From a virus (taxonomy: Duplodnaviria > Heunggongvirae > Uroviricota > Caudoviricetes), in the IMG/VR virus record IMGVR_UViG_2526164667_000029: a stretch of DNA of 36,097 bases; one strand, written 5' to 3'. Shown in pieces: positions 3,922-35,505 of the stretch. The notes below the pieces were generated by a model that saw nothing but the letters and a program-made list of their open reading frames with translations, was not told the DNA's origin and did no database searches. Within the stretch, counting starts at the first letter, position 1. The number at the start of each line of letters is the position of its first letter. A program made the position numbers and the translations under genes.

Positions 3922-4311
3922 ATGATTGACGCTCATGACTTCACAAGATGGGTGCGCACACAGGACACCCGTCTGGCTCCCATTCTTCGGGGATTATTTG
4001 ATCTCTACATTCGTGGTCGTGACAACAGAGCACGCACCACAAAACCGGAGAATGTGGATACCCTTTATTTCACAGTAGACGACTGCTACCGCGTGGACTT
4101 CACACCACACGGACTGGCGTTGCACTGCCTGACACCGCACGGCGAATCACTGCTGGCGTATTACGACTCCCCGGCCTCCGTATTTGCGGCAATGCTGGCG
4201 CATCGCACTGCTGGCGGGTGTGTCTCGCTGAGTGAATACACCGCTGAATTTAACCGCCTTTCCACCATCTTCTTGCAGGAGTGGCAGCGCGTGACGGGAT
4301 ACCAGCCATGA
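3922..4311 (+). CDS. Hypothetical early protein (129 aa), immediately upstream of A
   Basis: Six-frame ORF ending at the start of the replication gene. Confidence 0.5.
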   Translation: MIDAHDFTRWVRTQDTRLAPILRGLFDLYIRGRDNRARTTKPENVDTLYFTVDDCYRVDFTPHGLALHCLTPHGESLLAYYDSPASVFAAMLAHRTAGGCVSLSEYTAEFNRLSTIFLQEWQRVTGYQP

Positions 4312-7148
4312 GTGAGTTTGCATGGAGCTGGAATGAACCACGACCAGCCATTGATCCGGCCAGATTTACGGAGCACAGGCAGGAAACTGAAACCGACCTG
4401 CAACGCGCCATCCGTTACTACCTTGAGGCAGACAAAAAGGCCCTGGAAGAACAGGAAGCGAAGGAGGAAGCCTTTTTCGCACAATCCACCGTGGGTAAAA
4501 AACTCATGGCATCCCTTGAGGAAGCCGGACAGCGTGAAAAGCTGGCACAAAGCATCATCAGCAAGCGTCAGGCAACAGAACAAGACCCGGTGGCCCGTGC
4601 TTTTGCCACACTGAAAGTGCTTCCCGTTTATCTGCGTGAACCTCTGAGCCGCCACCTCTCTTTCCTGCGCAAAAAACAGGAATCCGATCGTCAGAAAGGC
4701 AAAAAGAGCTGGCAGGCTGAACGCTACGCGCGCGGAAACCTGCGCAAAATATTCGAACGCCTGGAACGCACCGATCACCGCTGGCTGACACCGGGTTATC
4801 GCTCCCTTACCGGACGCGAACGCCTGGACGATTTGCTTTACCTGCCGCAGCTCAACAAACACCAGATACAGACGCTGGCCACCATGACGGCGGCGATGTT
4901 CAGCAGCACCTTCGAAAAACTCTGCGATAGCTTTGGCGCGACTGATGGCGAGCTGACCATGGATGTAACGCTGAAGGCGTATCAGATGCTGGCCCGCATG
5001 GCGTTACACCTGCACGCCATGCCTCCACATTATGACGCACTGACAACAGACAAAGACCGGAGGAACGAACCGGACACGGAGCTGCTGCCGGGCGCAATCC
5101 TTCGCCTGACCTGTGCGGAATGGTGGAAACGCAAACTGTGGCTGTTACGTTGCGAGTGGCGGGAAGAACAACTCCGCGCCGCCTGTCTGGTTTCCAGAAA
5201 AACATCGCCCTATCTGAGTCAGGACGCATTAAGCGAGTTTCGCGCGCAGCGCGAGAAAACACGCGATTTCCTGAAAAGTTTCATGCTGGAAAACGAAGAC
5301 GGGTTCACGATTGATCTCGAGACAGTGTATTACGCGGGAGTAAGTAACCCGGTTCACCGTAAGGCAGAAATGATGGCCACCATGAAGGGGCTGGAACTTC
5401 TGGCCGAAGCCCGTGGCGACAGAGCGGTGTTTCTGACTGTCACCTGCCCGTCAAAATACCACGCCACAACAGAGAACGGTCATCCGAATCCCAAATGGAA
5501 CGGGGCCACCATGCGCGACTCCAGCGATTACCTGGTTAACACGTTTTTTGCGGCAGTCCGCAAAAAACTGAACCGCGACGGTCTGCGCTGGTATGGCATC
5601 CGCACGGTGGAGCCTCACCATGACGGCACCGTGCACTGGCATATGATGGTCTTTGCTCATCCGGAAGAAATCGACAGCATCGTGGCCATCACCCGCGATA
5701 TTGCCATTCAGGAAGACCGCCACGAGCTGGGCAATGATATTACTCCGCGCTTTAAGGTGGAGTATGTCGACGGCTCAAAAGGCACACCAACCAGCTATAT
5801 CGCGACCTACATCGGAAAAAACCTGGACAGCCGCGCCGTGGATGGCATCGACCCGAAAACGGGCAAGCCACGCGTTGACCACGAAACCGGAAAATCAATG
5901 GCCGAGAGCGTGGAACGCGCCATCGGCTGGGCGCGCCTTCACCGGGTTCGCCAGTTCCAGTTCTTTGGTATCCCCTCCCGTCAGGTGTGGCGTGAACTGC
6001 GCCGCCTTGCCAGCCAGATGGCACGCAACCCGGAAGGCCCGCAACGGCTGAAGGATGACGCAATGGATGCGGTACTCGCTGCCGCTGATGCCGGATGTTT
6101 TGCCACCTACATTGAAAAACAGGGTGGCGTGCTTGTTCCACGCAAGGACTACCTGATTCGCACCGCCTACGACCTCGCAGATGAGCTGAACGATTACGGC
6201 GAACAGAGCGTACAGATTTACGGGATCTGGTCACCACTCATCGGGGAATCCTCCCGTGTGTGCACGCATCCGGATAACTGGAAGCTGGTAAGACGTAAAC
6301 CAGAACCGGAAGACAACGCCCACGAAAATGGTTTTGACCTTCAGGGCGGCCCTGCCGCCTCTTGGACTCGTGGCAATAACTGTCCCCGTGTACAGGAAAC
6401 GGACAACAACGGGACAAAACAGCCGGAAGAACGGCCAGCACCGTGGCCGCAGCTCCCTGACGGCGTTGATGTGGATGAATGGATGCGCTCACTGAAACGG
6501 CACGAACGCCGGGCGCTGATGCGTTCGCTTCGTGACAAACAGGCAAAAAACAGCAGTGATGAAATGCAGAGCTGGACACAGAGCCGCAAACAGCAGCGGC
6601 CTTTGCCTGATAACCACGAATTACTCGCTAAAGAATGGCGGGAGTCTGCTGAATCTCTCGGCCTGCATATCGGTGAACAACAGATGCAGCACCTGTTACG
6701 GGGCGGCAGTCTGTACGTTGACGGCAGCATCATTGCACCGCAGGGATTTGAAATTGTACGCAAACCGGATACCCGCCCGGACAGCCGAATCACGCAGCTC
6801 TGGCAGCGCCTGAGCCGTAATCATGGCGTAAGCAGCACGGAGATCCGCCATAACCCGGTCGCCAGCTATCTGACACAGCTGGGGGCATCAGACCCTGAAG
6901 CCGCCGCACGCCTGGCATCCACACTTCAGCAGGACCAGAACACCATGAAAACACCCGTTACCGTGCTTTCTGACATGCTGCGCGCCATCCGCGACGCAGA
7001 GCACGCACAGAGAATCAGTGAAACCACTGAACGCGCCAGCCGCAAAGCAGACCTGCTGCGGGGTGGCCTGACCAGTGGAAACAAAAAACAGACAGAAACG
7101 GGACTCACGAATCCCGTAAATGAGCAAAAAACGCGCAGCGATATATGA
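4308..7148 (+). CDS. A: Rolling-circle replication initiator (P2 gpA-like HUH endonuclease)
   Basis: HUH-type motif VHWHMMVFAHPE and tyrosine pair in YIATYIGKN as in P2 gpA; ORF track starts at 4281, likely ATG at 4308 (MSEFAWSW); about 190 aa longer at the C-terminus than the P2 gpA length I remember (761 aa). Confidence 0.9.
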   Translation: MSEFAWSWNEPRPAIDPARFTEHRQETETDLQRAIRYYLEADKKALEEQEAKEEAFFAQSTVGKKLMASLEEAGQREKLAQSIISKRQATEQDPVARAFATLKVLPVYLREPLSRHLSFLRKKQESDRQKGKKSWQAERYARGNLRKIFERLERTDHRWLTPGYRSLTGRERLDDLLYLPQLNKHQIQTLATMTAAMFSSTFEKLCDSFGATDGELTMDVTLKAYQMLARMALHLHAMPPHYDALTTDKDRRNEPDTELLPGAILRLTCAEWWKRKLWLLRCEWREEQLRAACLVSRKTSPYLSQDALSEFRAQREKTRDFLKSFMLENEDGFTIDLETVYYAGVSNPVHRKAEMMATMKGLELLAEARGDRAVFLTVTCPSKYHATTENGHPNPKWNGATMRDSSDYLVNTFFAAVRKKLNRDGLRWYGIRTVEPHHDGTVHWHMMVFAHPEEIDSIVAITRDIAIQEDRHELGNDITPRFKVEYVDGSKGTPTSYIATYIGKNLDSRAVDGIDPKTGKPRVDHETGKSMAESVERAIGWARLHRVRQFQFFGIPSRQVWRELRRLASQMARNPEGPQRLKDDAMDAVLAAADAGCFATYIEKQGGVLVPRKDYLIRTAYDLADELNDYGEQSVQIYGIWSPLIGESSRVCTHPDNWKLVRRKPEPEDNAHENGFDLQGGPAASWTRGNNCPRVQETDNNGTKQPEERPAPWPQLPDGVDVDEWMRSLKRHERRALMRSLRDKQAKNSSDEMQSWTQSRKQQRPLPDNHELLAKEWRESAESLGLHIGEQQMQHLLRGGSLYVDGSIIAPQGFEIVRKPDTRPDSRITQLWQRLSRNHGVSSTEIRHNPVASYLTQLGASDPEAAARLASTLQQDQNTMKTPVTVLSDMLRAIRDAEHAQRISETTERASRKADLLRGGLTSGNKKQTETGLTNPVNEQKTRSDI

Positions 7149-7224: not shown

Positions 7225-8184
7225 ATGAAAATTTGTATCGACGACGGCTCCACCAACATCAAGCTGGCATGGACTGAGAACGGCGAACGCCGCAACGCCA
7301 TCAGCCCGAACAGCTTCAAGTCGGAATGGTCTGCGCCGTTCGGTGGCACGCAGCCCGCGAACTACATGCTTGATGGCGTGCGCTATGGTTTTGATCCGGT
7401 CAGCGATCGCTTTGTCCAGACGACCGACACGCAATACCAATACAGCGATGTGAATGTCATTGCCATTCATCACGCGCTGGTCAAATCAGGCATCACACCA
7501 CAGGAGGTGGATGTGGTTGTCACCCTGCCACTGAGCGAGTATTTCGACACAAACGCACAGCCGGACATAGCCAACATCAACCGCAAAAAAGCGAACGTTA
7601 TGCGCCCGGTGGAGTACCAGAACGGCGAAGCATTCACTATCCGTAACGTGCGGGTTATGCCTGAATCCATTCCGGCTGGCTTTAAGGCACTGGCTGACAT
7701 GAGTCCGTTTGAATCCCTGCTGATTGTGGATTTGGGCGGAACCACGCTGGATGTGGCAAAGGTTCAGGGGCAACTGGCAGGTATCAGCCAGGTGTTTTGC
7801 GATCCACACGTAGGCGTTTCTCTGATGGCCGATGCCGTACTGGCGGTGATGGCCACTAACGGTATGCGCACCAGTCACCACATCGCCAATACCATTATCG
7901 AACATCGCCATGATGAAGCCTGGCTGCGCCAGCACATCCACAATGACGCGCATTACGCCAGCCTGATGGCGGTTATTCGTGAAAAGGAAGAAACACTGAA
8001 ACAACGCGTGATCCGCGCGCTGGCGGTTTTTTCGGGTTACGGGCGGGTGATGGTTGTCGGTGGAGGGGCGGAGATTGTGGCACCCGCTATCCGCGAAGCC
8101 TGCGGAGTTAATGCGACTTTCATCGCGGACGGGGTGCCACAGTTTGCTCTGGTTAATGGGCTGTACGCAATGGACAAGGAGTAA
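7225..8184 (+). CDS. parM: ParM actin-like segregation ATPase (type II partition)
   Basis: N-terminus MKICIDDGSTNIKLAW plus ISPNSFK, YSDVNVIAIHHAL and C-terminal LVNGLYAM closely parallel plasmid R1 ParM (remembered MLVFIDDGSTNIKLQW...). Confidence 0.85.
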   Translation: MKICIDDGSTNIKLAWTENGERRNAISPNSFKSEWSAPFGGTQPANYMLDGVRYGFDPVSDRFVQTTDTQYQYSDVNVIAIHHALVKSGITPQEVDVVVTLPLSEYFDTNAQPDIANINRKKANVMRPVEYQNGEAFTIRNVRVMPESIPAGFKALADMSPFESLLIVDLGGTTLDVAKVQGQLAGISQVFCDPHVGVSLMADAVLAVMATNGMRTSHHIANTIIEHRHDEAWLRQHIHNDAHYASLMAVIREKEETLKQRVIRALAVFSGYGRVMVVGGGAEIVAPAIREACGVNATFIADGVPQFALVNGLYAMDKE

Positions 8185-8188
8185 ACCA

Positions 8189-8500
8189 ATGACGACACCA
8201 ACCAGACGGATAAGTTTCTATCTGAAGCCTGCGGCCGTCAAGAACGAAAGCGAAGCATGCGCCTGGCTGGACAGCCTTACACCAGAAGCCCGCAAAAGCG
8301 GCCAACGCGTGGCTTTTCTGGCCGGGCTGGCACTTCTGAAAATGAATCCAGCAGAGGCTTACCGACTGGCTGCATGGGCTGACGATGAGGCGTTATCAGT
8401 GACACAAACCAGGACAGAATGCCCCGCGTCACAGCCAGTATCAACCGCACAGATAACCAGTCAGATGGCCGGAAATATCCGGGCATTATTTCCCGAATAA
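8189..8500 (+). CDS. parR: ParR centromere-binding adaptor
   Basis: Starts right after the parM stop with aggag upstream; RISFYLKP, AFLAGLALL and C-terminal IRALFPE resemble R1 ParR; the ORF track entry 8054-8500 extends upstream in a frame overlapping parM, so the internal ATG at 8189 is preferred. Confidence 0.6.
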   Translation: MTTPTRRISFYLKPAAVKNESEACAWLDSLTPEARKSGQRVAFLAGLALLKMNPAEAYRLAAWADDEALSVTQTRTECPASQPVSTAQITSQMAGNIRALFPE

Positions 8501-8573: not shown

Positions 8574-8816
8574 TTGACAGAGAAAAAGGAAAAAAGCATG
8601 AACAGAAAACAGAAACAAGAGTTGAAATACTTCTTACGTAAAGAAATTGCCAGGCTTGAAGATGCAGAGTCACAATCATCAGAAATTCCGTTCGGAATGG
8701 ATATCAACGACGCCCGTATGCTTCAGGCATACCGTATAGCTCAGGCTGCACTACAGACAAAACCGTTAAATAACATACATGAAAAGTATGATTATTTTAC
8801 GGATACCGCTTGCTGA
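8574..8816 (+). CDS. Hypothetical small protein (about 72-80 aa) in the tin/old-position hotspot
   Basis: Six-frame ORF, AT-rich; alternative start MNRKQKQE at about 8598. Confidence 0.35.
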   Translation: MTEKKEKSMNRKQKQELKYFLRKEIARLEDAESQSSEIPFGMDINDARMLQAYRIAQAALQTKPLNNIHEKYDYFTDTAC

Positions 8817-9001
8817 CATCTGAAGAACAAAAGATAGCCCAACTTTTAGGCGACGCATGGAACCTGTATTTAACATTGCCAGTTGAGCATCCAATGGGTA
8901 GAGATGAATTTTGCCGGGCAATTCATCATTGCCAAAATATGATGTTGGCACGCCCGGCCATCAGGACGCTGGCCAGGAAGGGGCAAGGCTATAAAAGATA
9001 A
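8810..9001 (+). CDS. Hypothetical small protein (63 aa) in the tin/old-position hotspot
   Basis: Six-frame ORF with a non-ATG start, overlapping the previous ORF's end; could be a separate gene or a frameshifted continuation. Confidence 0.3.
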   Translation: MLTSEEQKIAQLLGDAWNLYLTLPVEHPMGRDEFCRAIHHCQNMMLARPAIRTLARKGQGYKR

Positions 9002-9061: not shown

Positions 9062-9433
9062 TTTTTTTGAACGACTTTTTGCCCTTCCGGCCCGCGTTGC
9101 GGCTGGATCCGTCAAGGATCCGTGCGTGCACAAAAAAACGCGCTTTTTCTGCGCGCAGGTGACGGGGGAACAGCCCGCGTTTCAGGGGGTAAATAGCATT
9201 CCCTGAACGATGTCGCAGAGACACAACAGAATGGCTGTATTTCTCACGCTGAGCATGAAAAATACGTGAGGGATTCTGATTTGATGGGGTGAAAGGTAAG
9301 GCCGTCAAAATCGCACTGAGGCGGCGAAGAACATGCAGTCAACGCGGTGGGATTGCGTAAGAGTCTGACCGCCGATGATGGCAATAAGCAGAAAAGCGTC
9401 GTGAAATTATCTGATTGATACAGGAGCTGGAGA

Positions 9434-9462
9434 GCCGGGGCATAAATTTTTTATGCCCCGGC
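9434..9462. terminator. Perfect 13-bp inverted repeat stem-loop just downstream of Q
   Basis: GCCGGGGCATAAA-ttt-TTTATGCCCCGGC located about 25 nt past the Q stop on the minus strand. Confidence 0.5.
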
Positions 9463-9486
9463 GAAGCAGCAGACAAGCGAAGCGCG

Positions 9487-10518
9487 TCAGGATGTGGGCT
9501 GGGTATCTAACAGTGCGTAAGGGTTAAAGCGGATCACCTCTTCGCCAAGCCAGTCATTGATGTGCTTCATGGCCTCCATGACGGGCATCAGCTCGTTAAT
9601 TGCGTAAACCCGCGCGGCCTTCTCCACATCACCAAACGCACTTTTTTCACCCGGCATCGCCCCCATCAGTTGCGGCGGAACGCGGTGCGCAGCCAGCACA
9701 TCATCACGGGATGCCGCCTTAACATTCATGAACTCATCCTTTGCGGTGATCTGCTGGAACGGCAAAATTTGCACCCCCTCTTTGCCCCCGTTGGGCGCAT
9801 GAATGAGCACGTTTTTAAACGCACCGCCACCACGTGCACCCTGTAGCGTTTCTTTCAGGGAGTCCATGCTTTCGCGGTTTACCTGCGCTGCACCGATGTA
9901 GATGATGCACCCGGCGTGGGATCCGTTGTCGTAATACAGTTTTCTGAACATGTCCGCCGAATGAGACAGGCTGGCCGAGAGTAATGCGCCGAGATATTCC
10001 GGCATGCCGTAGATTTCCTGGTTAATGTCAGGATTCATCAGGTGGCACACTTTGCCAGGGCGAAACTGGAACGCATCCTTGCCATCCTGCACATACCACC
10101 ATGATTCAAGATCGCTACCGCGTCGCATGTATTTCGCCAGGGCGTGCCGTAATTTAAGCGGTTCGCCGAGCATATTGCTTCGAAGCTCAAGGAATGCGTT
10201 ACCGAACACAAACCAGTCCAGCGCCAGCGCCGAGAAATCCTGCCGGGAAAGCAGCGGGTGCGGGATGTAGCAACCGAGTAATACATTGCGCTTAAAGTAA
10301 AGCGCAGACTGATGCCAGGACGTTTGCCGGGCAGCTCTTGCCAGACCGTACCAGTCCACCGGGGTTTCATACCACCGCCCGTTATCAGCACAGTACATAT
10401 TGTCCAGCAGGTCATGCCCGGTCAGGCGATAAGGACCATCAACCACCAGGAACAGCCGGAGGAACCACCACGGACACAGCGCCGCTGTCGCCGTTGCCAC
10501 TGCTGCCGTTTGCGTCAT
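9487..10518 (-). CDS. Q: Portal protein (P2 gpQ-like)
   Basis: 343 aa from the ATG at 10518 (ORF open to 10608); conserved blocks RWYETPV..GLARA, VLAAHRVPPQLMG and NDWLGEEVIRF resemble P2 gpQ as I remember it. Confidence 0.85.
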   Translation of the reverse strand: MTQTAAVATATAALCPWWFLRLFLVVDGPYRLTGHDLLDNMYCADNGRWYETPVDWYGLARAARQTSWHQSALYFKRNVLLGCYIPHPLLSRQDFSALALDWFVFGNAFLELRSNMLGEPLKLRHALAKYMRRGSDLESWWYVQDGKDAFQFRPGKVCHLMNPDINQEIYGMPEYLGALLSASLSHSADMFRKLYYDNGSHAGCIIYIGAAQVNRESMDSLKETLQGARGGGAFKNVLIHAPNGGKEGVQILPFQQITAKDEFMNVKAASRDDVLAAHRVPPQLMGAMPGEKSAFGDVEKAARVYAINELMPVMEAMKHINDWLGEEVIRFNPYALLDTQPTS

Positions 10519-11737
10519 ACCCAATCCATACCGGACGATTCCCCATCGGGCGGGGAGCAAAAGGTTTCCAGTCTTTCCAGTCGTCGTATCCGTCAACGCC
10601 ACAGCCAATCAGGATATTCAGGTTAAATGCCGATTCCCCTTCGCGGACAAACTCACACATATAGAGATTGAGGAACTCGTCTTCGGTGTTTTCATCACGA
10701 ATTTCATCAATATCGGTGTGTTTCCAGCCGTGATTAACCACATCTTCCAGCGTGACAATTTGCCGCCACGTCCGGTCAGGGCAGATAAGCCCGTTATGCA
10801 GCGTTTTCCAGTCCACAGAAAAACGCTGGCGTTTATGCGAGGCCTTTTTCTCGTTCCAGCGGTCGCCGTTCCAGTAGGCGTATGCCTCGTGCGTTTCGGT
10901 GGATGGCGTGGAGAAGTAGGTGCGCCGCAGTCCGCTGAGGGTTGCCATAGCGCCAGCCACCTTGCGCAGTTCAGCAAAGCGACTGACCCAGAAAAATTCA
11001 TCAAAATAAAAATTGCCCGTATAGGACTGTGCCGACGCAGCAGAAGTGCCGAGAAAATGCAGCTCTGCGCCGTTGGAGAGGATGATTTTATCGCCCCCTT
11101 TCAGCTCCACATCAACTTCAGCCGCGGCCTTCTGAATAATGCTTTTAAACTGGAACGCCTGACGACGCGACGCAGACAAAAAAATCTGGTTACGCTGGTA
11201 AGGTTGCGCCACATCGTCACGCAGCGCCATCAGCAGTGCTTCCTGTGCAAAATACCAGGTCGCCCCAATCTGTCGGGATTTCAGGATCATCCTGTTACGT
11301 ATCCCGGCTTCCCTGCAAAGGGTCAGGGAGTCAAACCAGCTCCGCTGATGCCACTCCAGCCTGCTGATGATTTTTTCCCGCAGTGCGGCAATCTGTTCCG
11401 GCGTGAAATGATTTTTGAGTTTTTTCGCCCGGCCTTTCTTTCCTGCGGCCATCACATCCGGCTGGCCATCATGCAGCTTTTTAAGCTGCCGTGTCAGCAG
11501 GTCTATTTCCTTAAAGTCACCGCCTGTTTTATTCTGTTTTTCAGTAAGCTGGATGAGGCGCGCATCGATGGACTGCGTGACACGCTGCACGGGTGGCGTT
11601 TCATCCCACTGGTCGCGTTTTTTCCACGCATAAATCGTGTTCGGGTTTATTCCCATCAGACGTGATATTTCTGCGGGCGGATAACCCTGCCAGTAAAGTT
11701 GCCGCGCACGCTGGCGCACAAAAGCGTCCTGAATCAT
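10439..11737 (-). CDS. P: Terminase large (ATPase) subunit, P2 gpP-like, apparently C-terminally truncated
   Basis: 432 aa with N-terminal HTH-like region, Walker A-like ILKSRQIGATWYF and Walker B-like NFYFDEFFW; ORF ends right after a nuclease-domain-like start VWIGYDANGSSGNGDSGAVSVVVPP and overlaps Q by about 80 nt. Confidence 0.8.
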   Translation of the reverse strand: MIQDAFVRQRARQLYWQGYPPAEISRLMGINPNTIYAWKKRDQWDETPPVQRVTQSIDARLIQLTEKQNKTGGDFKEIDLLTRQLKKLHDGQPDVMAAGKKGRAKKLKNHFTPEQIAALREKIISRLEWHQRSWFDSLTLCREAGIRNRMILKSRQIGATWYFAQEALLMALRDDVAQPYQRNQIFLSASRRQAFQFKSIIQKAAAEVDVELKGGDKIILSNGAELHFLGTSAASAQSYTGNFYFDEFFWVSRFAELRKVAGAMATLSGLRRTYFSTPSTETHEAYAYWNGDRWNEKKASHKRQRFSVDWKTLHNGLICPDRTWRQIVTLEDVVNHGWKHTDIDEIRDENTEDEFLNLYMCEFVREGESAFNLNILIGCGVDGYDDWKDWKPFAPRPMGNRPVWIGYDANGSSGNGDSGAVSVVVPPAVPGG

Positions 11738-11891
11738 TGCTCCCCCTGAGTAATTACAGGAAGATTACCCGCGCGCGAAACCGTTCTCCTTAACCCCCTG
11801 TTCTGGCCGTTTTCTTACAACAAAAGCCCTTTGTATCAGCCTGTTACGCTTTGCCATCATGACTGAAGAACCAGTCAGAGGGGCAAAAACT

Positions 11892-15246: not shown

Positions 15247-15446
15247 TGAAAGTGAAGGCACTGGAAGGCGACACCGTGGATTCGCTCTGTTTCCGGTACT
15301 ACGGCACGACGCAGGGCGTCACCGAAAAGGTGCTGGATGCCAACCCCGGACTCTGTCAGCAGGTATTTCTGGACGCCGGGCAGGAAGTGGAGATGCCGGA
15401 GCCGGAGAAGAAGAAACGAGAAATGATTCAGTTGTGGGGGGAGTAG
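15246..15446 (+). CDS. X: Tail protein X (LysM-like)
   Basis: MKVKALEGDTVDSLCFRYYGTTQGVTEKVLDANPGL resembles P2 gpX; start overlaps the L stop (tgATGa). Confidence 0.75.
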   Translation: MKVKALEGDTVDSLCFRYYGTTQGVTEKVLDANPGLCQQVFLDAGQEVEMPEPEKKKREMIQLWGE

Positions 15447-15448
15447 CA

Positions 15449-15772
15449 GTGAGCACCATTCAAACAGGGATCACAGAGCAGGTTATTGCGTGGCTCTTTG
15501 ACCACCTGCCAACGGTGTATGCAGTAGGCGCGGCGGTCAGCATTTCCGCGCTGATGAGTCTTTATGACGGACGAACACTGGTTCAGACCGTAACGGGATC
15601 GCTGGCGTGCGGCGTTCTTGCCATGGCCGTGGCCGGGTCGTTGCGCTTCTTCGGGTTTCCTGAAGATGCCGTGACGTTTATCGGCGCATCAATCGGTTTT
15701 ATGGGTGCAGAGAAAGCACGCGACAAGGTTATTGCGGCCTTTAATCGCAGGGTGAAGGAGAAGGACGAATGA
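15449..15772 (+). CDS. Y: Holin (gpY position)
   Basis: About 107 aa from a GTG at 15449; two or three hydrophobic segments and a charged C-terminus; directly precedes the endolysin. Confidence 0.6.
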   Translation: MSTIQTGITEQVIAWLFDHLPTVYAVGAAVSISALMSLYDGRTLVQTVTGSLACGVLAMAVAGSLRFFGFPEDAVTFIGASIGFMGAEKARDKVIAAFNRRVKEKDE

Positions 15773-16161
15773 GCAACACATTTAAATTCAGCAGCCGGAG
15801 CGAAAAGAATTTGCAGGGCGTAAATCCTGATCTGGTGAAAGTGACCCGACGGGCACTGGAAATTTCGGAAGTGGATTTTGGTATCACCGAAGGGTTGCGC
15901 AGCCGTTACCGCCAGAAGCAACTTGTGGCCACAGGTAAGAGCCAGACCATGAACAGCCGCCACCTTACGGGACATGCCGTGGATGTTGTGGCTTATATCG
16001 GCAGCCAGGTGTCATGGGAATGGCCGCTGTACGAAAAAATCGCAGCAGCATTCAGACAGGCCAGCCGGGAACTGAATATTCCGGTGGAATGGGGCGGCGA
16101 CTGGAAGACCCTGAAAGACGGACCACATTTTCAGTTACCACACGGAGCCTATCCGGCATGA
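15769..16161 (+). CDS. Endolysin, peptidase M15-type (L-alanyl-D-glutamate endopeptidase family)
   Basis: 130 aa with SRH..GHAVD and WGGDW..DGPHFQL motifs typical of M15 zinc peptidases; not the lysozyme-type P2 gpK. Confidence 0.8.
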   Translation: MSNTFKFSSRSEKNLQGVNPDLVKVTRRALEISEVDFGITEGLRSRYRQKQLVATGKSQTMNSRHLTGHAVDVVAYIGSQVSWEWPLYEKIAAAFRQASRELNIPVEWGGDWKTLKDGPHFQLPHGAYPA

Positions 16162-22902: not shown

Positions 22903-23508
22903 CTATTTATACAATACAGCACCGCTCTTTTTAGTTATATATGTGCAGTTCGATGGTATATCTTTATTTATAAAAGACATTGCACCTATTTTTACATTAT
23001 CCCCAATTTTACGGGATAATCCAATGATGCAACAATTAGCTCCGATATCAACGTTGCTACCAATTTTTACTCTTGAACCAGGTATGTCACCATCTATCTG
23101 TCCAATGGTCGTATTCTGTCGTAACACCAGATTTTCACCAGCATCAACAGCAAAATGAACAACAATTCCAGCATGATGGGGAATTGTTAACCCTTTTCCA
23201 ATATTTGCGCCCAATCCAATTTCACAACCAAATTTGTTAATTATTTTACTGTTTAACTTTTTGGCTGCTTTCTTATGTAATTTATTACCATTAATATACA
23301 TTTCGTTAGCCAACCGCCACCAGAAAAGGAAATTCCGGTTACGCTGTTTTTTCTCTCTTAAAAGCCTCCAGATATCCATACGTTTCCGCCGAATTACTTC
23401 ATATTTCCAGAAGTTTTTTAAATTAGTAGAGTTCCCAAATAAAACAAAGTGAATTGCCATTAAGTAAGACAGCACGATAATCTCCTTAATTATTATTTCA
23501 GACGACAC
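22903..23508 (-). CDS. Hexapeptide-repeat (left-handed beta-helix) acetyltransferase, CysE/WcaB-like moron
   Basis: Hexapeptide pattern IGKGLTIPHHAGIVVHFAVDAGENLVLRQNTTIGQ...IGSNVDIGANCCIIG...IGDNVKIGAMSFI; strongly AT-rich compared with flanking phage genes. Confidence 0.75.
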   Translation of the reverse strand: MSSEIIIKEIIVLSYLMAIHFVLFGNSTNLKNFWKYEVIRRKRMDIWRLLREKKQRNRNFLFWWRLANEMYINGNKLHKKAAKKLNSKIINKFGCEIGLGANIGKGLTIPHHAGIVVHFAVDAGENLVLRQNTTIGQIDGDIPGSRVKIGSNVDIGANCCIIGLSRKIGDNVKIGAMSFINKDIPSNCTYITKKSGAVLYK

Positions 23509-29207: not shown

Positions 29208-29631
29208 AGCTTCAGCCCCTTGTATCCGTTAAATGATTCGGCAACAATCATCACCCACCACGCGCGTAATCTCACTCCTGCGCCGTTCTCCCGCCACGGC
29301 GACAACAAAAAGCAGTAACCCCCTCCGCACGCACATGCGACCATGCCGCACAGGGAGGGAACAGATGACCGACACCACCATGCAATTGCTCAGTCAGGGC
29401 ACAGACCCCGTGAAAATGCCGGATTTTGATATTCTCGCGGAGGGTAAAACGCTGTCAGGCGTGGCAGAGCGCCTGATGAGCCTGTCACTGACCGACAACC
29501 GGGGATTTGAAGCGGACCAGCTCACCATCACGCTGGATGATGCGGATGGTCAGTTGCAGCTACCGCCACGGGGCGCGCGCCTGACGGTTCTCATTGGCTG
29601 GAAAGGAGAACCGCTGACAGAAAAAGGCACT

Positions 29632-30852
29632 TGTAGATTCAATCTGTCAATGCAACACCCCTTTCAATTATCTCTTTCGGTGTTTTGAACTTCAGTGTCT
29701 TTCTCGGTCTGTTGTTTAGCTGAGCAGCAACCAGATCTAGTTCATGTTGAGTATATTGGGCAAGACATGTCTTTTTAGGAAAGTACTGCCGAATTAGCCC
29801 ATTTGTGTTCTCATTTGTTCCCCGCTGCCAAGGACTCTGAGGATCGCAGAAGTAAACTTTAACGCCGGTGCTGACAGTAAATTCTAGATGTCTGGCCAGT
29901 TCCATTCCTCTGTCCCATGTCAGTGATTTTCTGAGTTCTGACGGTAAACTCAGGAATTTGTCGGTAAGAGCCTGATTTACTGAGACAGAATCTTTGCCCC
30001 TGAGTCTGAGGATGATCGTATAACGTGATTTTCGGTCTACAAGTGTGGCTATATGAGAGTTTTTTGTACCTGAGACTAAATCGCCCTCCCAATGCCCCAG
30101 AGAGCGTCTGTTATCGATATTTCGGGAACGTTCGTGAATTGGTGTTCCGTTCACTATGTTAATCGTACCTCTTTCGCCTTTGCGGGTATGACGCCTGCCA
30201 TGGCGAAGGCTATGCGACCGTCGCAGATGCTGTATATTCAGGTGGTGTAGCGCTTCACGGCTACGAAAGTACAGCGTTTTATAAATTGTCTCAGGTGATA
30301 TTCGCAGCGTTTTTTGACGTGGTTTTGTTCGCCTTAACCATCCTGATATTTGCTCTGGAGACCATTTCATCTCCAGCTTTTCCAGAACAAGCTTTCGCAA
30401 TGGTAAATTTTGATCCAGTAAGCACGGTTTTGGCCTTTTCGCCATTCTGTTGGCTCGGTTATTAGCATCAACAGCTTTGTAATAGCGTCTGCCCCGATTA
30501 CGCTGAACTTCACGTGAGATCGTCGAAGGACTGCGATTCAGCGCAGTAGCTATCGCACGAATGCTCATTTTGGCTGACAAACCAGCTCGTATCTCCTCGC
30601 GCTCAGACAGTGTCAGGTGAGCTACAGCCCGCTTACGCTCATGGGGTTTTATGCCGCCAGTATCCCTTAACATAGTGAAGATCGTTCCGGGTTTTGAACC
30701 CAGGATATTCGCTATTTCACTGAAGCCTGTTCCGTTCTTCCATAGTTCAAAAACAGAGGCTTTTTCCTCTGCTGTAAATGTTCGTCTCATTCAAAAAACC
30801 TCCGCAACCCCATGTTTTCACATAACTGTTGCGTTGACCAATTGAATCTACA
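29632..30852 (-). mobile_element. IS30 insertion sequence (complete, about 1221 bp)
   Basis: Terminal inverted repeats TGTAGATTCAAT..GTCAA.GCAAC at both ends; 2-bp flanking direct repeat CT; one 383-aa transposase ORF. Confidence 0.9.
29639..30790 (-). CDS. insI: IS30 transposase
   Basis: 383 aa with N-terminal HTH and a DDE-type catalytic core; fills nearly the whole element. Confidence 0.9.
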   Translation of the reverse strand: MRRTFTAEEKASVFELWKNGTGFSEIANILGSKPGTIFTMLRDTGGIKPHERKRAVAHLTLSEREEIRAGLSAKMSIRAIATALNRSPSTISREVQRNRGRRYYKAVDANNRANRMAKRPKPCLLDQNLPLRKLVLEKLEMKWSPEQISGWLRRTKPRQKTLRISPETIYKTLYFRSREALHHLNIQHLRRSHSLRHGRRHTRKGERGTINIVNGTPIHERSRNIDNRRSLGHWEGDLVSGTKNSHIATLVDRKSRYTIILRLRGKDSVSVNQALTDKFLSLPSELRKSLTWDRGMELARHLEFTVSTGVKVYFCDPQSPWQRGTNENTNGLIRQYFPKKTCLAQYTQHELDLVAAQLNNRPRKTLKFKTPKEIIERGVALTD

Positions 30853-31855
30853 CTTACATTGTTGATGAAATCGCTCACGAAGGACCGCCGGACAGGCTGA
30901 CTGTTTCAGCCAGAAGCGCAGATTTTCGGGATGAATTTAACGTTAAACGTGAGGTGTCCTGGCATGATGTGACCGTTGAGCGTGTGGTATCCGCCATCGC
31001 TCATCGGTATGGTCTGAAACCGCAAATCAGCGAAATGCTGATGGATATCGAAATCGACCACGCCGACCAGACCGAAGAAAGCGACATGTCCTTCCTTACG
31101 CGCATGGCGGAAATGCTGGGCGCAATCACCACAGTAAAAAGCGGCAATCTGTTATTCATCATGCCAGGTGGTGGCGTGAACGCACAGGGCCAGCCGTTGC
31201 CCTCGTTCGCCATTACACGCAGCAGCGGCGATCGCCATCAGTTCCGTATTGCTGACCGCGAGGCGTATACGGGGGTACGCGCCTACTGGCTTGATCTTAA
31301 TTACGGGAAAAAGAAAAAAGTCAGCGTGAAACGCCGTAAACCGCCAAAACCCAAAAAGGAGAAAAGCAGCAGCCGTGAAGGTGATTATATGGAAGGCGCG
31401 GAAGGCAATGTGTTTGTGTTACGCAAGACTTATCAGAACGAGCAGGCAGCAAGACGCGCAGCGGCGGCAAAGTGGCAGCAGCTACAACGCGGAGCCGCAG
31501 CGTTCTCCATCACACTGGCACGTGGACGCGCAGAACTCTACCCCGAAATGCATGGCACGGTAACAGGCTTTAAAAGCGAGATTGATAATCAGGACTGGAT
31601 TATTGCGAAAGCCGAGCACACCATTGATAACAGCGGCTTTACCACGCAGCTTGAGCTTGAGGCAAAAATCCCGGAATGGATAGCAGAATGAGACTCTTAA
31701 ATGTATTAGTCCAGACACGTACTAGCGGGCTAAACGGCACAGTCTTATCTGACCATCTGCCCCTAACACAGAGCAGACGGTCCTTGATCTTACCCACTAA
31801 TAATGGACGCGCGACTAATATAATTTATTGCTTTTTATTTATACCTCACTGAGAT

Positions 31856-32491
31856 TTAGCGAGCTAATATATTCAAAGAATTTAACAATTGAGTGTCGAG
31901 TGTTTCAGTTGCAGGAATCGGTAATCCATTCGCAATGCGGTAATTTTTCACAGACAGCCTTGTGGATGGCCCCATTATGCCGTCAATATTTCCGTTATAA
32001 AATCCCCTGTCCAGCAATGCGAACTGAACTCGCATAATCAATCGCTTACGTTTCTCTGCATCAGAAGCAAGCCCATTACTCGTACGGTTAACCTCTGAAG
32101 TTCCAACAGAACTCGTGTTAGTGGTTCTATTATTATCGTTAGAACGAAGTGCACGCACCGAGGAAGAGGACGATGAGGAACTTGCACCTGAACTTGAAGA
32201 ACCAGATGAACGTGGTGAGCTGTATGTTTTTGGATAATAGGGGGTACTTCCACCATAGTATCCACCACCTGATGAGGATCTATGAGAGCTATGGCTCCTA
32301 TGAGAGCTATGGCTTCGATGCCCTGCGATATAAAATGGGACTTCCGTGTTAAGTGGAGCTATCACTAAATCATGCTCATTAAGAGTCATACCAGGTAAAT
32401 CACTCGCTCCTGTAGATGAATCGCTTGCCCATACAGAATTGTTGAGAGCCAAAAATCCCGGAAGTAGAGCAGCAAAATTAAACTTTTTCAT
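31856..32491 (-). CDS. hxsA: His-Xaa-Ser repeat protein (HxsA-like): signal peptide, HxS repeats, Ser-rich linker, peptidoglycan-binding-like C-terminus
   Basis: Signal peptide MKKFNFAALLPGFLALNNSVWA; repeat HRSHSSHRSHSSHRS; Ser-rich tract; C-terminal RVQFALLDRGFYNGNIDGIMGPSTRLSVKNYRIANGLP resembles a PG_binding_1 domain; start overlaps the stop of the upstream rSAM gene (ATGA); ORF track extends to 32569 in the same frame. Confidence 0.7.
   Translation of the reverse strand: MKKFNFAALLPGFLALNNSVWASDSSTGASDLPGMTLNEHDLVIAPLNTEVPFYIAGHRSHSSHRSHSSHRSSSGGGYYGGSTPYYPKTYSSPRSSGSSSSGASSSSSSSSVRALRSNDNNRTTNTSSVGTSEVNRTSNGLASDAEKRKRLIMRVQFALLDRGFYNGNIDGIMGPSTRLSVKNYRIANGLPIPATETLDTQLLNSLNILAR
32276..32320 (-). 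repeat. 18-bp tandem DNA repeats encoding the His-Xaa-Ser repeats of HxsA
   Basis: Plus-strand ctatgagagctatggct repeated about 2.5 times. Confidence 0.6.
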
Positions 32492-33600
32492 AAAATTGGT
32501 CTCGGTGATTGATGAAAACGGCCTTTTGAGGAACTGAAATAGCCAGCACAGGAAGGCTTCTGAGTACATTCATCACATTCTTTTGGATAGTAATTTTTCC
32601 AATCAGAGATCGACTGAACAGCAAGCTCCCTAGCCCTTTCAGGAAGATAACACAAAGGATAATTAAAAATTGTCAGAGGTATGCCTGACCTGTATGCAGC
32701 GTCTATGGCAGAGATTATTTTCTCACTATAACTACTGTGATCAATGAAGATGGTGGACCAGTTTTTTCGTGCCCAACCGATAGGCTCCAACCCCATAAGG
32801 GAAATCTGATTGATGTTGGAGAACACACGGCCAGCGAATTCTACAATATCATCCAATTCGGTATAGTTAGCCAGTGTAGGAATAACTCTAAGTTCGATAT
32901 TAATCCCCAAGTTTCCTGCATTGATTAACCCTTTAACCGTTTCATTAAATGCGCCATCACTCCCTACCAGATGATCATGCACAAGTGGTCTTGATGAGTA
33001 GAGCGGGATACCAAAGGTGATTTTGATCTTTTTGCTTCGCTTTGCCATTTCCTGTGTAAAGTTGATATCAGCAAATTTGCGTCCGTTTGTTAAAACATGT
33101 AAAGCAGTATCTGGTGAATTCTCGATGATAAAATCAATGAAGTGAAGGAAGTCATCCCCATATAGCAAAGGTTCACCACCGCTGACCCCAACAACTCCGT
33201 TCAAGCCAAATGAAGCTATAGCAAGAGCTGATTGGGTAAGTAGCCAGTCATCATTTATTTTCTTTGGTGGCTGCGAACAAAACAGACACAAGTTATTGCA
33301 GCGTTCCGTAACTAAGACAGTATTATGATTGGCTTTGCGTGACAGAATAACGCGTATCATATTGCCATTGTTGATTATCCCAATATCTCCATCTTCAATT
33401 GACTCAAATAATTCAGTGCTAATAACAGAGAAATCAAAGCATGGTGGAATGGCATCATTATTGCCTTCAGCAACTACTAGCAAATTGGGCAAAAAGAATA
33501 AAGGGTTCACTGGTTTTTGTTTGCATAACCGATAGAACCCCGTGGGCACGTTCTCTGTAGAAGCAAAATGAAAGATATCGTTCCTGATAACCTCAGACAT
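32488..33600 (-). CDS. Radical SAM maturase with C-terminal Cys-rich (SPASM/twitch-like) region, HxsB/HxsC-type
   Basis: 370 aa; CxxxCxxC motif CNNLCLFC; GGEP motif VSGGEPLL; C-terminal cysteines in CYLPERARE...CDECTQKPSCAGYF; 8-nt overlap with the upstream gene. Confidence 0.75.
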   Translation of the reverse strand: MSEVIRNDIFHFASTENVPTGFYRLCKQKPVNPLFFLPNLLVVAEGNNDAIPPCFDFSVISTELFESIEDGDIGIINNGNMIRVILSRKANHNTVLVTERCNNLCLFCSQPPKKINDDWLLTQSALAIASFGLNGVVGVSGGEPLLYGDDFLHFIDFIIENSPDTALHVLTNGRKFADINFTQEMAKRSKKIKITFGIPLYSSRPLVHDHLVGSDGAFNETVKGLINAGNLGINIELRVIPTLANYTELDDIVEFAGRVFSNINQISLMGLEPIGWARKNWSTIFIDHSSYSEKIISAIDAAYRSGIPLTIFNYPLCYLPERARELAVQSISDWKNYYPKECDECTQKPSCAGYFSSSKGRFHQSPRPIL

Positions 33601-34981
33601 ATGCCCATCCTTTTAGCATCTCAGCCTTCGAACCACCCTCTGAGATGCAGTTCATCAGATACCTGAACATCCCCTTGTGATATTGACAAAACGTTGAACG
33701 ACTCCTATCACCGACAGGCTCACCCTGTACACTTATGTTCTGGCATGGATCTGAACCACAAAATGGTTGATATGCACATGTATCACAACCTGGCAGAGCA
33801 AAATTGAACGATGAACTCAATACTGCGTTATAGTAAGGACTATCAGAAAATGATAGCGTCTTAACTTCACCCGCACTGAACTCCGTTTCAGGATTCACCT
33901 TCTGCAACATACGGCTCTCATCGCTACCATATACTCGACCGTCATAATTGAAAAGAATACTGTTAAGCACGACTCCACTTGGAGACTTTAAATCCGCATA
34001 ACCACTAAAACCGGGATTGAAGATCCTTTTCAGATGAATGGAGGCCGAATGTTCCACAACCCTTATCCCTTCATTATTAATCTTAAGGATTTCATCTATC
34101 AACGAGGCATAGAAGCTGAAGTATTCGTCCATAGAAAAGGTGAAAGAAGCTTTTTGTGCAAACCCATAGGGACTAACAGGTCGGATAAACATGTCCTTGA
34201 GACCAAGAGACAAGTGAGCCTGAACAATCGATTCAGGACGTTTGATAAGCTCTTTAGTAACTGTAGTAACCGTTGCAACGCGGCCAGCACCTAAAGAGTG
34301 TTTGATAGCCTCTACCCCTGACACTGTTCTACTGTACGCAAGCCCACGACCAAGAATTCGATTACTGTTGTGAACAACTTCCTCACCATCAAGCGACACA
34401 GAGAACGTTATGTTCCGGTCTCTCGACCATTCAATCATATCCTCATTCAAGACGGACAGACTTGATGCCACCACCATCTCAAAATTGGTTCTTCCCAGCG
34501 TTTCAGCACATTGATCATAGATGCTCTGAATTAAATCAAACCGCAAGAGAGGCTCCCCACCCTGTATCTCTATTTTGTAAGGTGGCGTTGATAGTTTTTT
34601 AATAGCCGAAATAATATCGGGGATGAGCTCAGGATTTAGGTCGTAACCTGAGGCATTAACAGAAGCTCTACTAACCTGGCAATACTTGCATGTATGGTCA
34701 CAACGTAATGTGGGTACAATCATGAAAATTGGCCTGACAGCCAGTTCATTCATCAATCGTTTTGCAAAAGCAGAACTTAAAGCATAGGGAGTTATAGCAG
34801 ATGAGCTTTCACTGGTTATGAAAAGCTTACTTTCTAGCACGTTTGATTGCTCCGAACTAATTCGCTCATCAGAAAGATCAATAAGGTCTTGCTCACCAAT
34901 GAAATGATGAAAACCTGCAAGGTTGCTTATAAACACCTGTCCATTAGGCAATCTGTCAAAATTAAATGGCATCAATTCCAT
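33593..34981 (-). CDS. Radical SAM maturase with N-terminal extension and C-terminal Cys-rich region, HxsB/HxsC-type
   Basis: 462 aa; CxxxCxxC motif CDHTCKYC; GGEP motif IQGGEPLL; C-terminal cluster PGCDTCAYQPFCGSDPC; start overlaps the hxsD stop (TAATG). Confidence 0.75.
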   Translation of the reverse strand: MELMPFNFDRLPNGQVFISNLAGFHHFIGEQDLIDLSDERISSEQSNVLESKLFITSESSSAITPYALSSAFAKRLMNELAVRPIFMIVPTLRCDHTCKYCQVSRASVNASGYDLNPELIPDIISAIKKLSTPPYKIEIQGGEPLLRFDLIQSIYDQCAETLGRTNFEMVVASSLSVLNEDMIEWSRDRNITFSVSLDGEEVVHNSNRILGRGLAYSRTVSGVEAIKHSLGAGRVATVTTVTKELIKRPESIVQAHLSLGLKDMFIRPVSPYGFAQKASFTFSMDEYFSFYASLIDEILKINNEGIRVVEHSASIHLKRIFNPGFSGYADLKSPSGVVLNSILFNYDGRVYGSDESRMLQKVNPETEFSAGEVKTLSFSDSPYYNAVLSSSFNFALPGCDTCAYQPFCGSDPCQNISVQGEPVGDRSRSTFCQYHKGMFRYLMNCISEGGSKAEMLKGWAYV

Positions 34982-35295
34982 TATGAAAGCCTCTCATCAA
35001 CACTGCGAAGCACTTTATGGACAATAGAGTCTCTCAACGCCCCTGTTTTATGCTGTAGCTTTTCTCGCAAAGAGTAATCATTAAGCAGCCTATCGAATTC
35101 ATAAAGGAATTTGGGATTATCGTTTTCAAAAGAGATTATCCAGTGGGAAACGTCTTCATGGAGTTTCCATCGAGTAAGCGGAGTCATCCAATATAGACTA
35201 TTGCGTATAACCCATTCAGAATATAGTTCTTTCTCAAACACTCTTTCGCTCATTGCAATTATCTTCCAATACAAATATTCATGATCAGCAACCAC
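34981..35295 (-). CDS. hxsD: HxsD-like small protein (LLNDYxLRE signature)
   Basis: 104 aa containing LLNDYSLRE, the motif that names the TIGRFAMs HxsD family (as I recall it); first gene of the operon. Confidence 0.6.
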   Translation of the reverse strand: MVADHEYLYWKIIAMSERVFEKELYSEWVIRNSLYWMTPLTRWKLHEDVSHWIISFENDNPKFLYEFDRLLNDYSLREKLQHKTGALRDSIVHKVLRSVDERLS

Positions 35296-35505
35296 TTTAA
35301 AGCGGATTTTTCCTATGGCAACAATAATATAACATATCCATAGATATGTTACAGATGCCTTGTTTCCCGTTGACTAATACATCACAACGTTAGTAATGGC
35401 TATCACAATTGTGAACTTCCACTTTTCACACAAGACAAGCTGTTAATTGGAATCTGTATCAGTACAACTTAGAATAGAGGAAGCACCACAGTAAGGGAGG
35501 TCGCT

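Follow-up and report, generated by a model that had tools for sequence, protein, structure and literature searches.

A 547-bp deletion truncates the large terminase and portal genes of a defective P88-like prophage in Escherichia coli

Why does the large terminase subunit (gpP, or TerL) of an otherwise recognizable phage morphogenesis operon end after 432 residues, just where its nuclease domain begins? This question is posed by an open reading frame at 10439..11737 on the minus strand of the window, by which we mean the whole stretch of DNA analysed here, 36,097 nucleotides in length. The initial annotation had given the length of gpP of phage P2 as about 590 aa, had put the span from the start of P to the end of Q some 550 bp below that of P2, and had proposed a 3' deletion or frameshift that would abolish packaging or, less likely, a lineage with a naturally short terminase. 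The answer at which we arrive is that the window very probably represents a P88-like prophage in which a 547-bp deletion has truncated both TerL and the portal, which is packaging-defective, which also carries an IS30 element in its gpD-like gene (gpD::IS30), and which is transmitted vertically within a sublineage of E. coli.

Translation and Pfam searches bear out that the P ORF is 432 aa long and stops just inside the nuclease domain. Its C-terminus reads ...VWIGYDANGSSGNGDSGAVSVVVPPAVPGG in translation (the terminal residues are also given as ...RPVWIGYDANGSSGNGDSGAVSVVVPPAVPGG) and is followed directly by a TGA at 10441-10439 that was formed at the deletion joint. The product comprises native residues 1-432 and is 99.8% identical to the corresponding part of the 583-aa TerL encoded by the prophage of E. 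coli O26:H11 strain 11368, with no foreign residues at its end. The gpP-type N-terminal HTH domain (Terminase_5, aa 6-63; 11549..11722, minus strand; E=1.2e-26) is intact, and so is the ATPase domain (Terminase_6N, aa 150-374; 10616..11290, minus strand; E=5e-50, profile positions 1-211 of 215), in which the invariant columns of a family alignment place the preserved Walker A region at K153/R155/G158 and Walker B at D246/E247. The layout is thus one of 145 residues of HTH and linker, the ATPase, and just 28 aa of RNase H-like nuclease domain (aa 405-432; 10442..10525, minus strand), a stub that holds only strands β1 and β2 and the first acidic residue, D408. Terminase_6C was not detected by Pfam in the 432-aa ORF at E<=0.01. 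Among the features that characterize gpP-type large terminases, the HTH and ATPase domains are therefore present in the window, while the Terminase_6C nuclease and the 1-nt P/Q overlap are missing, and the ORF is a truncated member of this family.

The extent of the loss can be read from an intact relative, in which Pfam places Terminase_6C at aa 405-566. The deleted TerL residues 433-583 (151 aa) match this profile on their own with E=3.6e-27 over positions 25-154 of 155, such that the RNase H-like domain has lost ~84% (130 of 155 profile positions) and keeps positions 1-24, and the truncated protein ends 24 residues into the domain. Across an alignment of 49 full-length family members (27-78% identity), the residues conserved in the C-terminal part are G406, D408, D469, G473, G475, K499, R547, H553 and D555. 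Of these, the window retains just G406 and D408; D469, K499, H553 and D555 all fall within the deleted part, and two of the three conserved acidic residues of the nuclease domain are consequently absent. When the intact relative P0001 was modelled with AlphaFold2 (mean pLDDT 89.9), nuclease strands were seen at 402-409, 419-425, 434-441, 462-469 and further on, and judging from this model the truncated protein would retain just the first two of them. When the model was searched with Foldseek, it matched both full-length TerLs (T4 gp17, 3CPE; HK97, 6Z6D; D6E, 5OEB; Sf6, 4IFE) and isolated TerL nuclease domains (G20c, 5M1O, with a TM score of 0.72; P74-26, 5TGE; SPP1, 2WBN); the intact TerL sequence itself gave no relevant match among PDB chains. 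We also searched the window for a translocated copy of the nuclease domain and rejected this candidate, given that the deleted stretch has no second copy in the window, whether sought as DNA or as protein; residual nuclease-domain sequence, which the initial annotation had suggested looking for around the end of P, was likewise not found.

Could the window nevertheless represent a natural P2-like lineage with a short, ATPase-only TerL, in which cutting is performed by another subunit? Length alone is not damning for a 432-aa terminase, since some solved TerLs of only ~400-470 aa (D6E, Sf6) hold both domains, and it is domain content that is decisive. In addition, several phage records label gpP "terminase ATPase subunit", in keeping with the older P2 nomenclature, in which gpP is the "ATPase subunit" and gpM the "endonuclease subunit". 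Against this, once the HTH/linker and ATPase are accounted for, the 28 aa that remain are far from a nuclease domain, and the C-terminal domain is present in every intact relative, from 99% down to ~30% identity. The closest of these are the TerLs of P88 (YP_009113067.1), phage 520873 and the O26:H11 11368 prophage (WP_000613782.1), all of Xuanwuvirus, Peduoviridae. They are 98-99.8% identical to the window over residues 1-432 and share with it the flanking DNA and the gene order (portal and TerL leftward; scaffold, capsid and TerS rightward), yet unlike the window they encode a TerL of 583 aa with a complete Terminase_6C, whose gene shares 1 nt with that of a 348-aa portal.

The same picture holds well beyond these three genomes. 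A megablast search with positions 9400-11800 returned 16 records of Xuanwuvirus/P88-like phages at 98-99% identity, and all 16 aligned in two to three pieces spanning ~2930-3560 bp as against 2401 bp in the window, the extra 547 bp being present in each. Among complete E. coli genomes, the operon is found in 1125 of 5426 and is covered to at least 80% in 1098 of those 1125; 58 of 60 evenly sampled matches from this set are single-piece alignments over 99-100% of the operon. The best-scoring match, 99% identical to the ORF, belongs to a 90%-identity protein cluster that is represented by a 583-aa sequence and counts 7319 members. Homologues among the matches listed, from Salmonella, Enterobacter, Klebsiella, Citrobacter and others, measure 569-584 aa and all carry PF17289, and full-length relatives at 30-48% identity (558-667 aa) align through query positions ~560-583. 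P2 itself has the same architecture and P-Q overlap, and its gpP and gpQ match those of the window over essentially full length at 44% and 47% identity, respectively, but both its genes are complete, with gpP at 590 aa, in agreement with the initial annotation, and gpQ at 344 aa. Hence comparison with close prophage relatives and with P2 gpP yields full-length terminases of 583 and 590 aa and defines the gap precisely. Intact phages with a TerL of about 430 aa and the same P/Q overlap, the finding that would have spoken for a short-terminase lineage, were not encountered; besides the 16 phage records with the extra DNA, the junction occurs in none of the 5426 complete E. coli genomes. Finally, the end of the ORF was created by the joint itself, and the breakpoint takes the start of the portal gene as well, which would be intolerable for a functional lineage. 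Taken together, these observations render a natural short TerL so improbable that we give it virtually no credence.

The boundaries of the deletion were determined by pairwise mapping to three intact relatives, P88, phage 520873 and the O26:H11 11368 prophage, with the same result each time. The junction lies at 10442..10443, and the 547 bp missing from it correspond to positions 4044-4590 of the P88 locus (L001) and 15378-15924 of the O26:H11 11368 locus (L004). In terms of reading frames, the deletion opens at the third base of TerL codon 432 and closes at the first base of portal codon 31, and on the coding strand the joint reads GGT GG/T TGA (the slash marking the point of fusion), so that TerL keeps its native residues 1-432, has nothing added, and meets a stop codon immediately. 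The span from the start of P to the end of Q is 2251 bp in the window, 2807 bp in P2 (556 bp more, close to what had been estimated) and 2798 bp in P88 (547 bp more). Of the two 3' lesions originally envisaged, it is therefore the deletion, joining TerL codon 432/433 to portal codon 31, that holds, and not the frameshift.

With regard to its origin, microhomology at the joint is 0 bp, and no direct or inverted repeats or microhomology were found at the breakpoints beyond 4-bp chance matches. As far as sequence can tell, this combination of zero microhomology and no nearby repeats suggests homology-independent end joining or illegitimate recombination of the topoisomerase type, rather than slippage, and an end-joining event is what we infer. 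Two other candidate origins were considered and rejected. First, the joint does not look like a crossover between two phage lineages, because the SNP density with respect to the three references is similar on both sides and there is no switch at 10442/10443. Second, an imprecise excision of a mobile insert from the P/Q boundary does not apply, because the extra DNA of PhiR44_2-type phages, ~614 bp amounting to a 525-bp ORF downstream of the portal gene, sits 3' of portal.

The second gene affected is that of the portal protein (gpQ). The remnant at 9487..10442 (minus strand) opens with 2 nt of codon 31 and runs on through codons 32-348 to the stop codon; it is matched by tblastn over aa 29-348 at 99% identity and retains the Phage_portal domain (PF04860), whereas the native ATG and codons 1-30 are deleted, so a complete portal ORF with its own start is lacking in the window even though the domain is there. 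What obscures this is that the portal frame happens to be open for 55 codons upstream of the joint, within out-of-frame TerL sequence. The resulting portal-frame ORF, 9487-10608, carries the Phage_portal domain and seems to overlap P, but its upstream part (10443..10608, minus strand), which contains an ATG at 10518 and a GTG at 10500, is a spurious extension. This open stretch accounts for the apparent P/Q overlap and also for a 337-aa "portal" that was called in one public assembly (L007) with GTG 10500 as its start. The overlap of about 80 nt noted in the initial annotation is thus correct as arithmetic, the ATG at 10518-10516 giving exactly 80 nt, but that ATG and the next 25 codons are TerL sequence read out of frame and not portal. 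The genuine 1-nt overlap between the stop of P and the start of Q, found in P88, 520873, 11368, PhiR44_2 and P2, is destroyed.

Some N-terminally altered portal could still be made, as the remnant lies in an open frame with candidate upstream starts. Since it has neither its own start nor coupling to P, output would at best be low, and we would expect at most small amounts, produced from an adventitious start and bearing a foreign hydrophobic N-terminus. In an alignment to P2 gpQ, the 30 lost codons correspond approximately to the poorly conserved N-terminal stretch that precedes the conserved core (P2 gpQ residues 1-26). Processing of P2 gpQ is said to remove 26 residues. This proteolytic processing takes place during gpQ maturation (PMC7552001). 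That the portal gene is truncated along with TerL, and that the deletion is one of three lesions in this prophage, goes beyond what had been noted for this locus before.

Where else does this joint occur? Apart from the complete genomes, an exact junction search found none among GTDB species-representative genomes and none in IMG/VR, and one or both flanking halves occur as separate matches in 1061 complete E. coli genomes. The absence of the junction from complete RefSeq E. coli genomes, GTDB representatives and IMG/VR could conceivably mean that it arose as an error in sequencing or assembling the source genome. This is, however, very hard to reconcile with the recurrence of the same junction and the identical 432-aa product in independent assemblies. 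The exact protein is deposited in GenBank under four accessions (EFN9119339.1, EFO0842492.1, EGD9994386.1 and EHW53747.1, named "terminase [Escherichia coli]"), and a contig look-up places it on 10 contigs, three of which were compared with the window. Contig AATPQQ010000039.1 of GCA_013052565.1 (L006) matches the window at 99.995% identity over 21.3 kb and has the same junction. The junction recurs in two Logan assemblies, SRR094968 and SRR094969 (L007 and L008), which are 100% identical to the window. We therefore regard an artefact as very unlikely. Finding the same junction in several assemblies instead implies that the deletion was inherited within a small E. coli sublineage; this lineage was traced by exact-protein look-up, and the phylogenetic spread of the junction is known from draft assemblies only.

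The window is a P88-like prophage (Xuanwuvirus, Peduoviridae) that is almost identical to the one inserted between btuC and ihfA in E. coli O26:H11 11368, with 99.55%, 96.7% and 99.9% identity over three blocks. Of the 47 CDSs of the 11368 prophage, 44 are matched at essentially full length, and the exceptions are TerL, portal and one 135-aa accessory ORF. The latter (8598..9001, plus strand) is split by the loss of one GCTT unit, a 4-bp frameshift near 8810, and constitutes the third lesion. The second lesion is an IS30 of 1221 bp at 29632..30852 (minus strand; 383-aa transposase at 29639-30790), which interrupts a gpD-like late tail gene and has duplicated 2 bp of its target (CT), leaving the gpD halves at 29365-29631 and 30853-31691. 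The draft contig of GCA_013052565.1 begins at approximately window position 29629, which fits the presence of the same IS30 there, because repeats break short-read assemblies.

Of these three lesions, at least two strike essential morphogenesis functions, and the P/Q deletion, gpD::IS30 and the 4-bp frameshift, set against intact close relatives, mark the element as a defective (cryptic) prophage. It is not a phage satellite: the full set of P88-type head, tail and lysis genes is kept, and the ORF tables of the window showed no genes of the kind specific to satellites. The integrase, repressor, replication, partition and lysis genes remain intact, as do the cos-region DNA and the hxsDBCA cargo. 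In this respect the window resembles other cryptic prophages of E. coli, with their deletions, IS insertions and frameshifts: multiple morphogenesis genes are damaged and the regulatory, integration and cargo genes are spared. It differs from them in that its decay is at an early stage.

It is conceivable that such a lesion was kept because it is useful. TerL(1-432) might act as a dominant negative and interfere with packaging by incoming, superinfecting P2/P88-like phages; the prophage might be a cos-bearing hitchhiker that borrows TerL, portal and gpD from a related phage; or selection might repeatedly favor the "grounding" of these prophages through loss of the nuclease and of the portal N-terminus, a route that preserves the hxsDBCA cargo and cos for helper-dependent transfer. 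The ORF is indeed a clean native 1-432 with intact ATPase motifs and a native upstream region, all the integration, regulatory, lysis and cargo functions listed above have been preserved along with cos, and O26:H11 11368 holds a second P/Q-like place. Independent P-Q deletions in other genomes also speak for it. P0004 (708 aa) is a fusion of TerL 1-371 to portal from residue 12, produced by a 671-bp deletion with 0 bp of microhomology in an otherwise heavily degraded remnant; P0005 (698 aa) joins TerL 1-367 to portal from residue 18 through a 701-bp deletion with 2 bp of microhomology; and P0149 (415 aa) joins TerL 1-172 to portal from approximately residue 106 through a deletion larger than either. 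All three affect the same two-gene operon in the same prophage family as in the window, but they have independent breakpoints and encode in-frame TerL::portal fusions, in contrast to the out-of-frame deletion and TerL stop described here.

A deletion hotspot, or selection for loss of the nuclease domain, is not supported by these alleles beyond chance, the P0004 and P0005 breakpoints being near and that of P0149, upstream at TerL residue 172, far away. There is, moreover, a strong ascertainment bias: homology searches favor alleles that retain most of the query, and the collection is so large, with E. coli genomes in the hundreds of thousands, that a handful of such P-Q deletions is to be expected. 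Members of the lineage are ~100% identical, so that selection is not measurable among them, and the accompanying IS30 and frameshift look like neutral decay. A useful lesion thus strikes us as very improbable, and we return to decay of a P88-like prophage as the explanation of this locus.

In the model that we favor, one deletion of 547 bp, probably illegitimate and homology-independent, fused TerL codon 432 to portal codon 31. TerL consequently terminates at the joint, preserving the HTH and ATPase domains and forfeiting most of the RNase H-like domain, and the portal gene is left 30 codons short, with no start codon of its own and no longer coupled to the translation of P. In T4 gp17, the C-terminal domain contains the nuclease site and has a role in translocation and portal docking. 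By established terminase biology, a TerL from which this domain is gone should neither cut cos sites nor translocate DNA, and the earlier expectation that the deletion abolishes packaging is thereby supported, by analogy with other large terminases. Having no nuclease/translocation domain and no normally expressed portal, the prophage would be predicted to carry out neither cos cutting nor DNA packaging unless assisted by a helper. The P/Q deletion and the IS30 in gpD together would then have left it defective, or "grounded", and confined to vertical carriage in its E. coli sublineage.

We argue that the deletion is a routine instance of prophage decay rather than a novel type of terminase; the protein is already deposited in public databases. 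For annotation, this means that the ORF should be designated a terminase pseudogene or fragment, that "portal" calls starting from 10518 or 10500 are artefacts, and that the prophage should be scored as defective, with no virions to be expected in the absence of a helper. Although it raises no new biological question, the locus illustrates, with dating by lineage, the early decay of a prophage within a lineage of E. coli that is related to carriers of the O26:H11 prophage.

Terminase and portal sequences are also joined in frame within single ORFs of other E. coli genomes, encoding fusion proteins of 708, 698 and 415 aa (P0004, P0005 and P0149, respectively), with terminase::portal fusion loci at 10001-12127 in L009 and 10001-12097 in L011, two loci from such genomes. 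These fusions are the products of independent, separate deletions within the same operon; one of them bears the NCBI name 'phage portal protein'. When intact TerL was compared with PHROGs, phrog_3746 (374 positions), a 'terminase large subunit' family, matched the N-terminal portion only, and phrog_5909 and phrog_5713, separate families of the same name, matched the C-terminal portion only. Such partial-TerL families probably derive from prophage-derived records in which the terminase had been called in pieces; NC_049341 and NC_049343, each listing three terminase CDSs, are examples.

Two further genes are broken in the window. A hypothetical 135-aa ORF (8598-9001), whole in the near-identical prophage of E. 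coli O26:H11 11368, is split near 8810 by a 4-bp frameshift, one GCTTGCTT tandem repeat unit being missing; the split is identical in GCA_013052565.1, a draft assembly of the same sublineage. The gpD-like late tail gene is interrupted by a complete IS30 of 1221 bp (29632-30852; 383-aa transposase on the minus strand), which is flanked by a 2-bp CT target duplication and leaves gpD halves at 29365-29631 and 30853-31691; a contig of a same-lineage draft assembly has one of its ends where IS30 sits in the window. The gpD of the 11368 reference prophage (L004 35113-35960) contains no IS. All that RefSeq annotates for it is a CDS of 264 aa, named 'VgrG/Pvc8 family', and a partial pseudogene; the 5' part of this gpD may carry a lesion of its own or be mis-annotated.

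Between gpD and ogr, an interval that is a P2-type accessory-gene hotspot, lies a low-GC cargo block (31859-35253) comprising the His-Xaa-Ser system hxsD-hxsB-hxsC-hxsA, whose products include two radical SAM maturases and one repeat protein. The block is 100% identical between the window and O26:H11 11368, and 89 complete E. coli genomes cover at least 80% of the query 31600-35500, some of their copies being interrupted by IS2 or ISVsa5. A serine acetyltransferase-like gene (22906-23475), likewise common to the window and the 11368 prophage, directly follows the tail fibre assembly gene on the opposite strand, in the place occupied in P88 by the invertible fibre segment, and is possibly a lysogenic-conversion moron.

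Finally, two genes at 7225-8497, one encoding a 319-aa ParM-like actin and the other a partition/stability protein, adjoin the replication gene in the window, as they do in phage P88. The presence of these genes suggests that the P88-like family may be capable of persisting as a plasmid-like episome.
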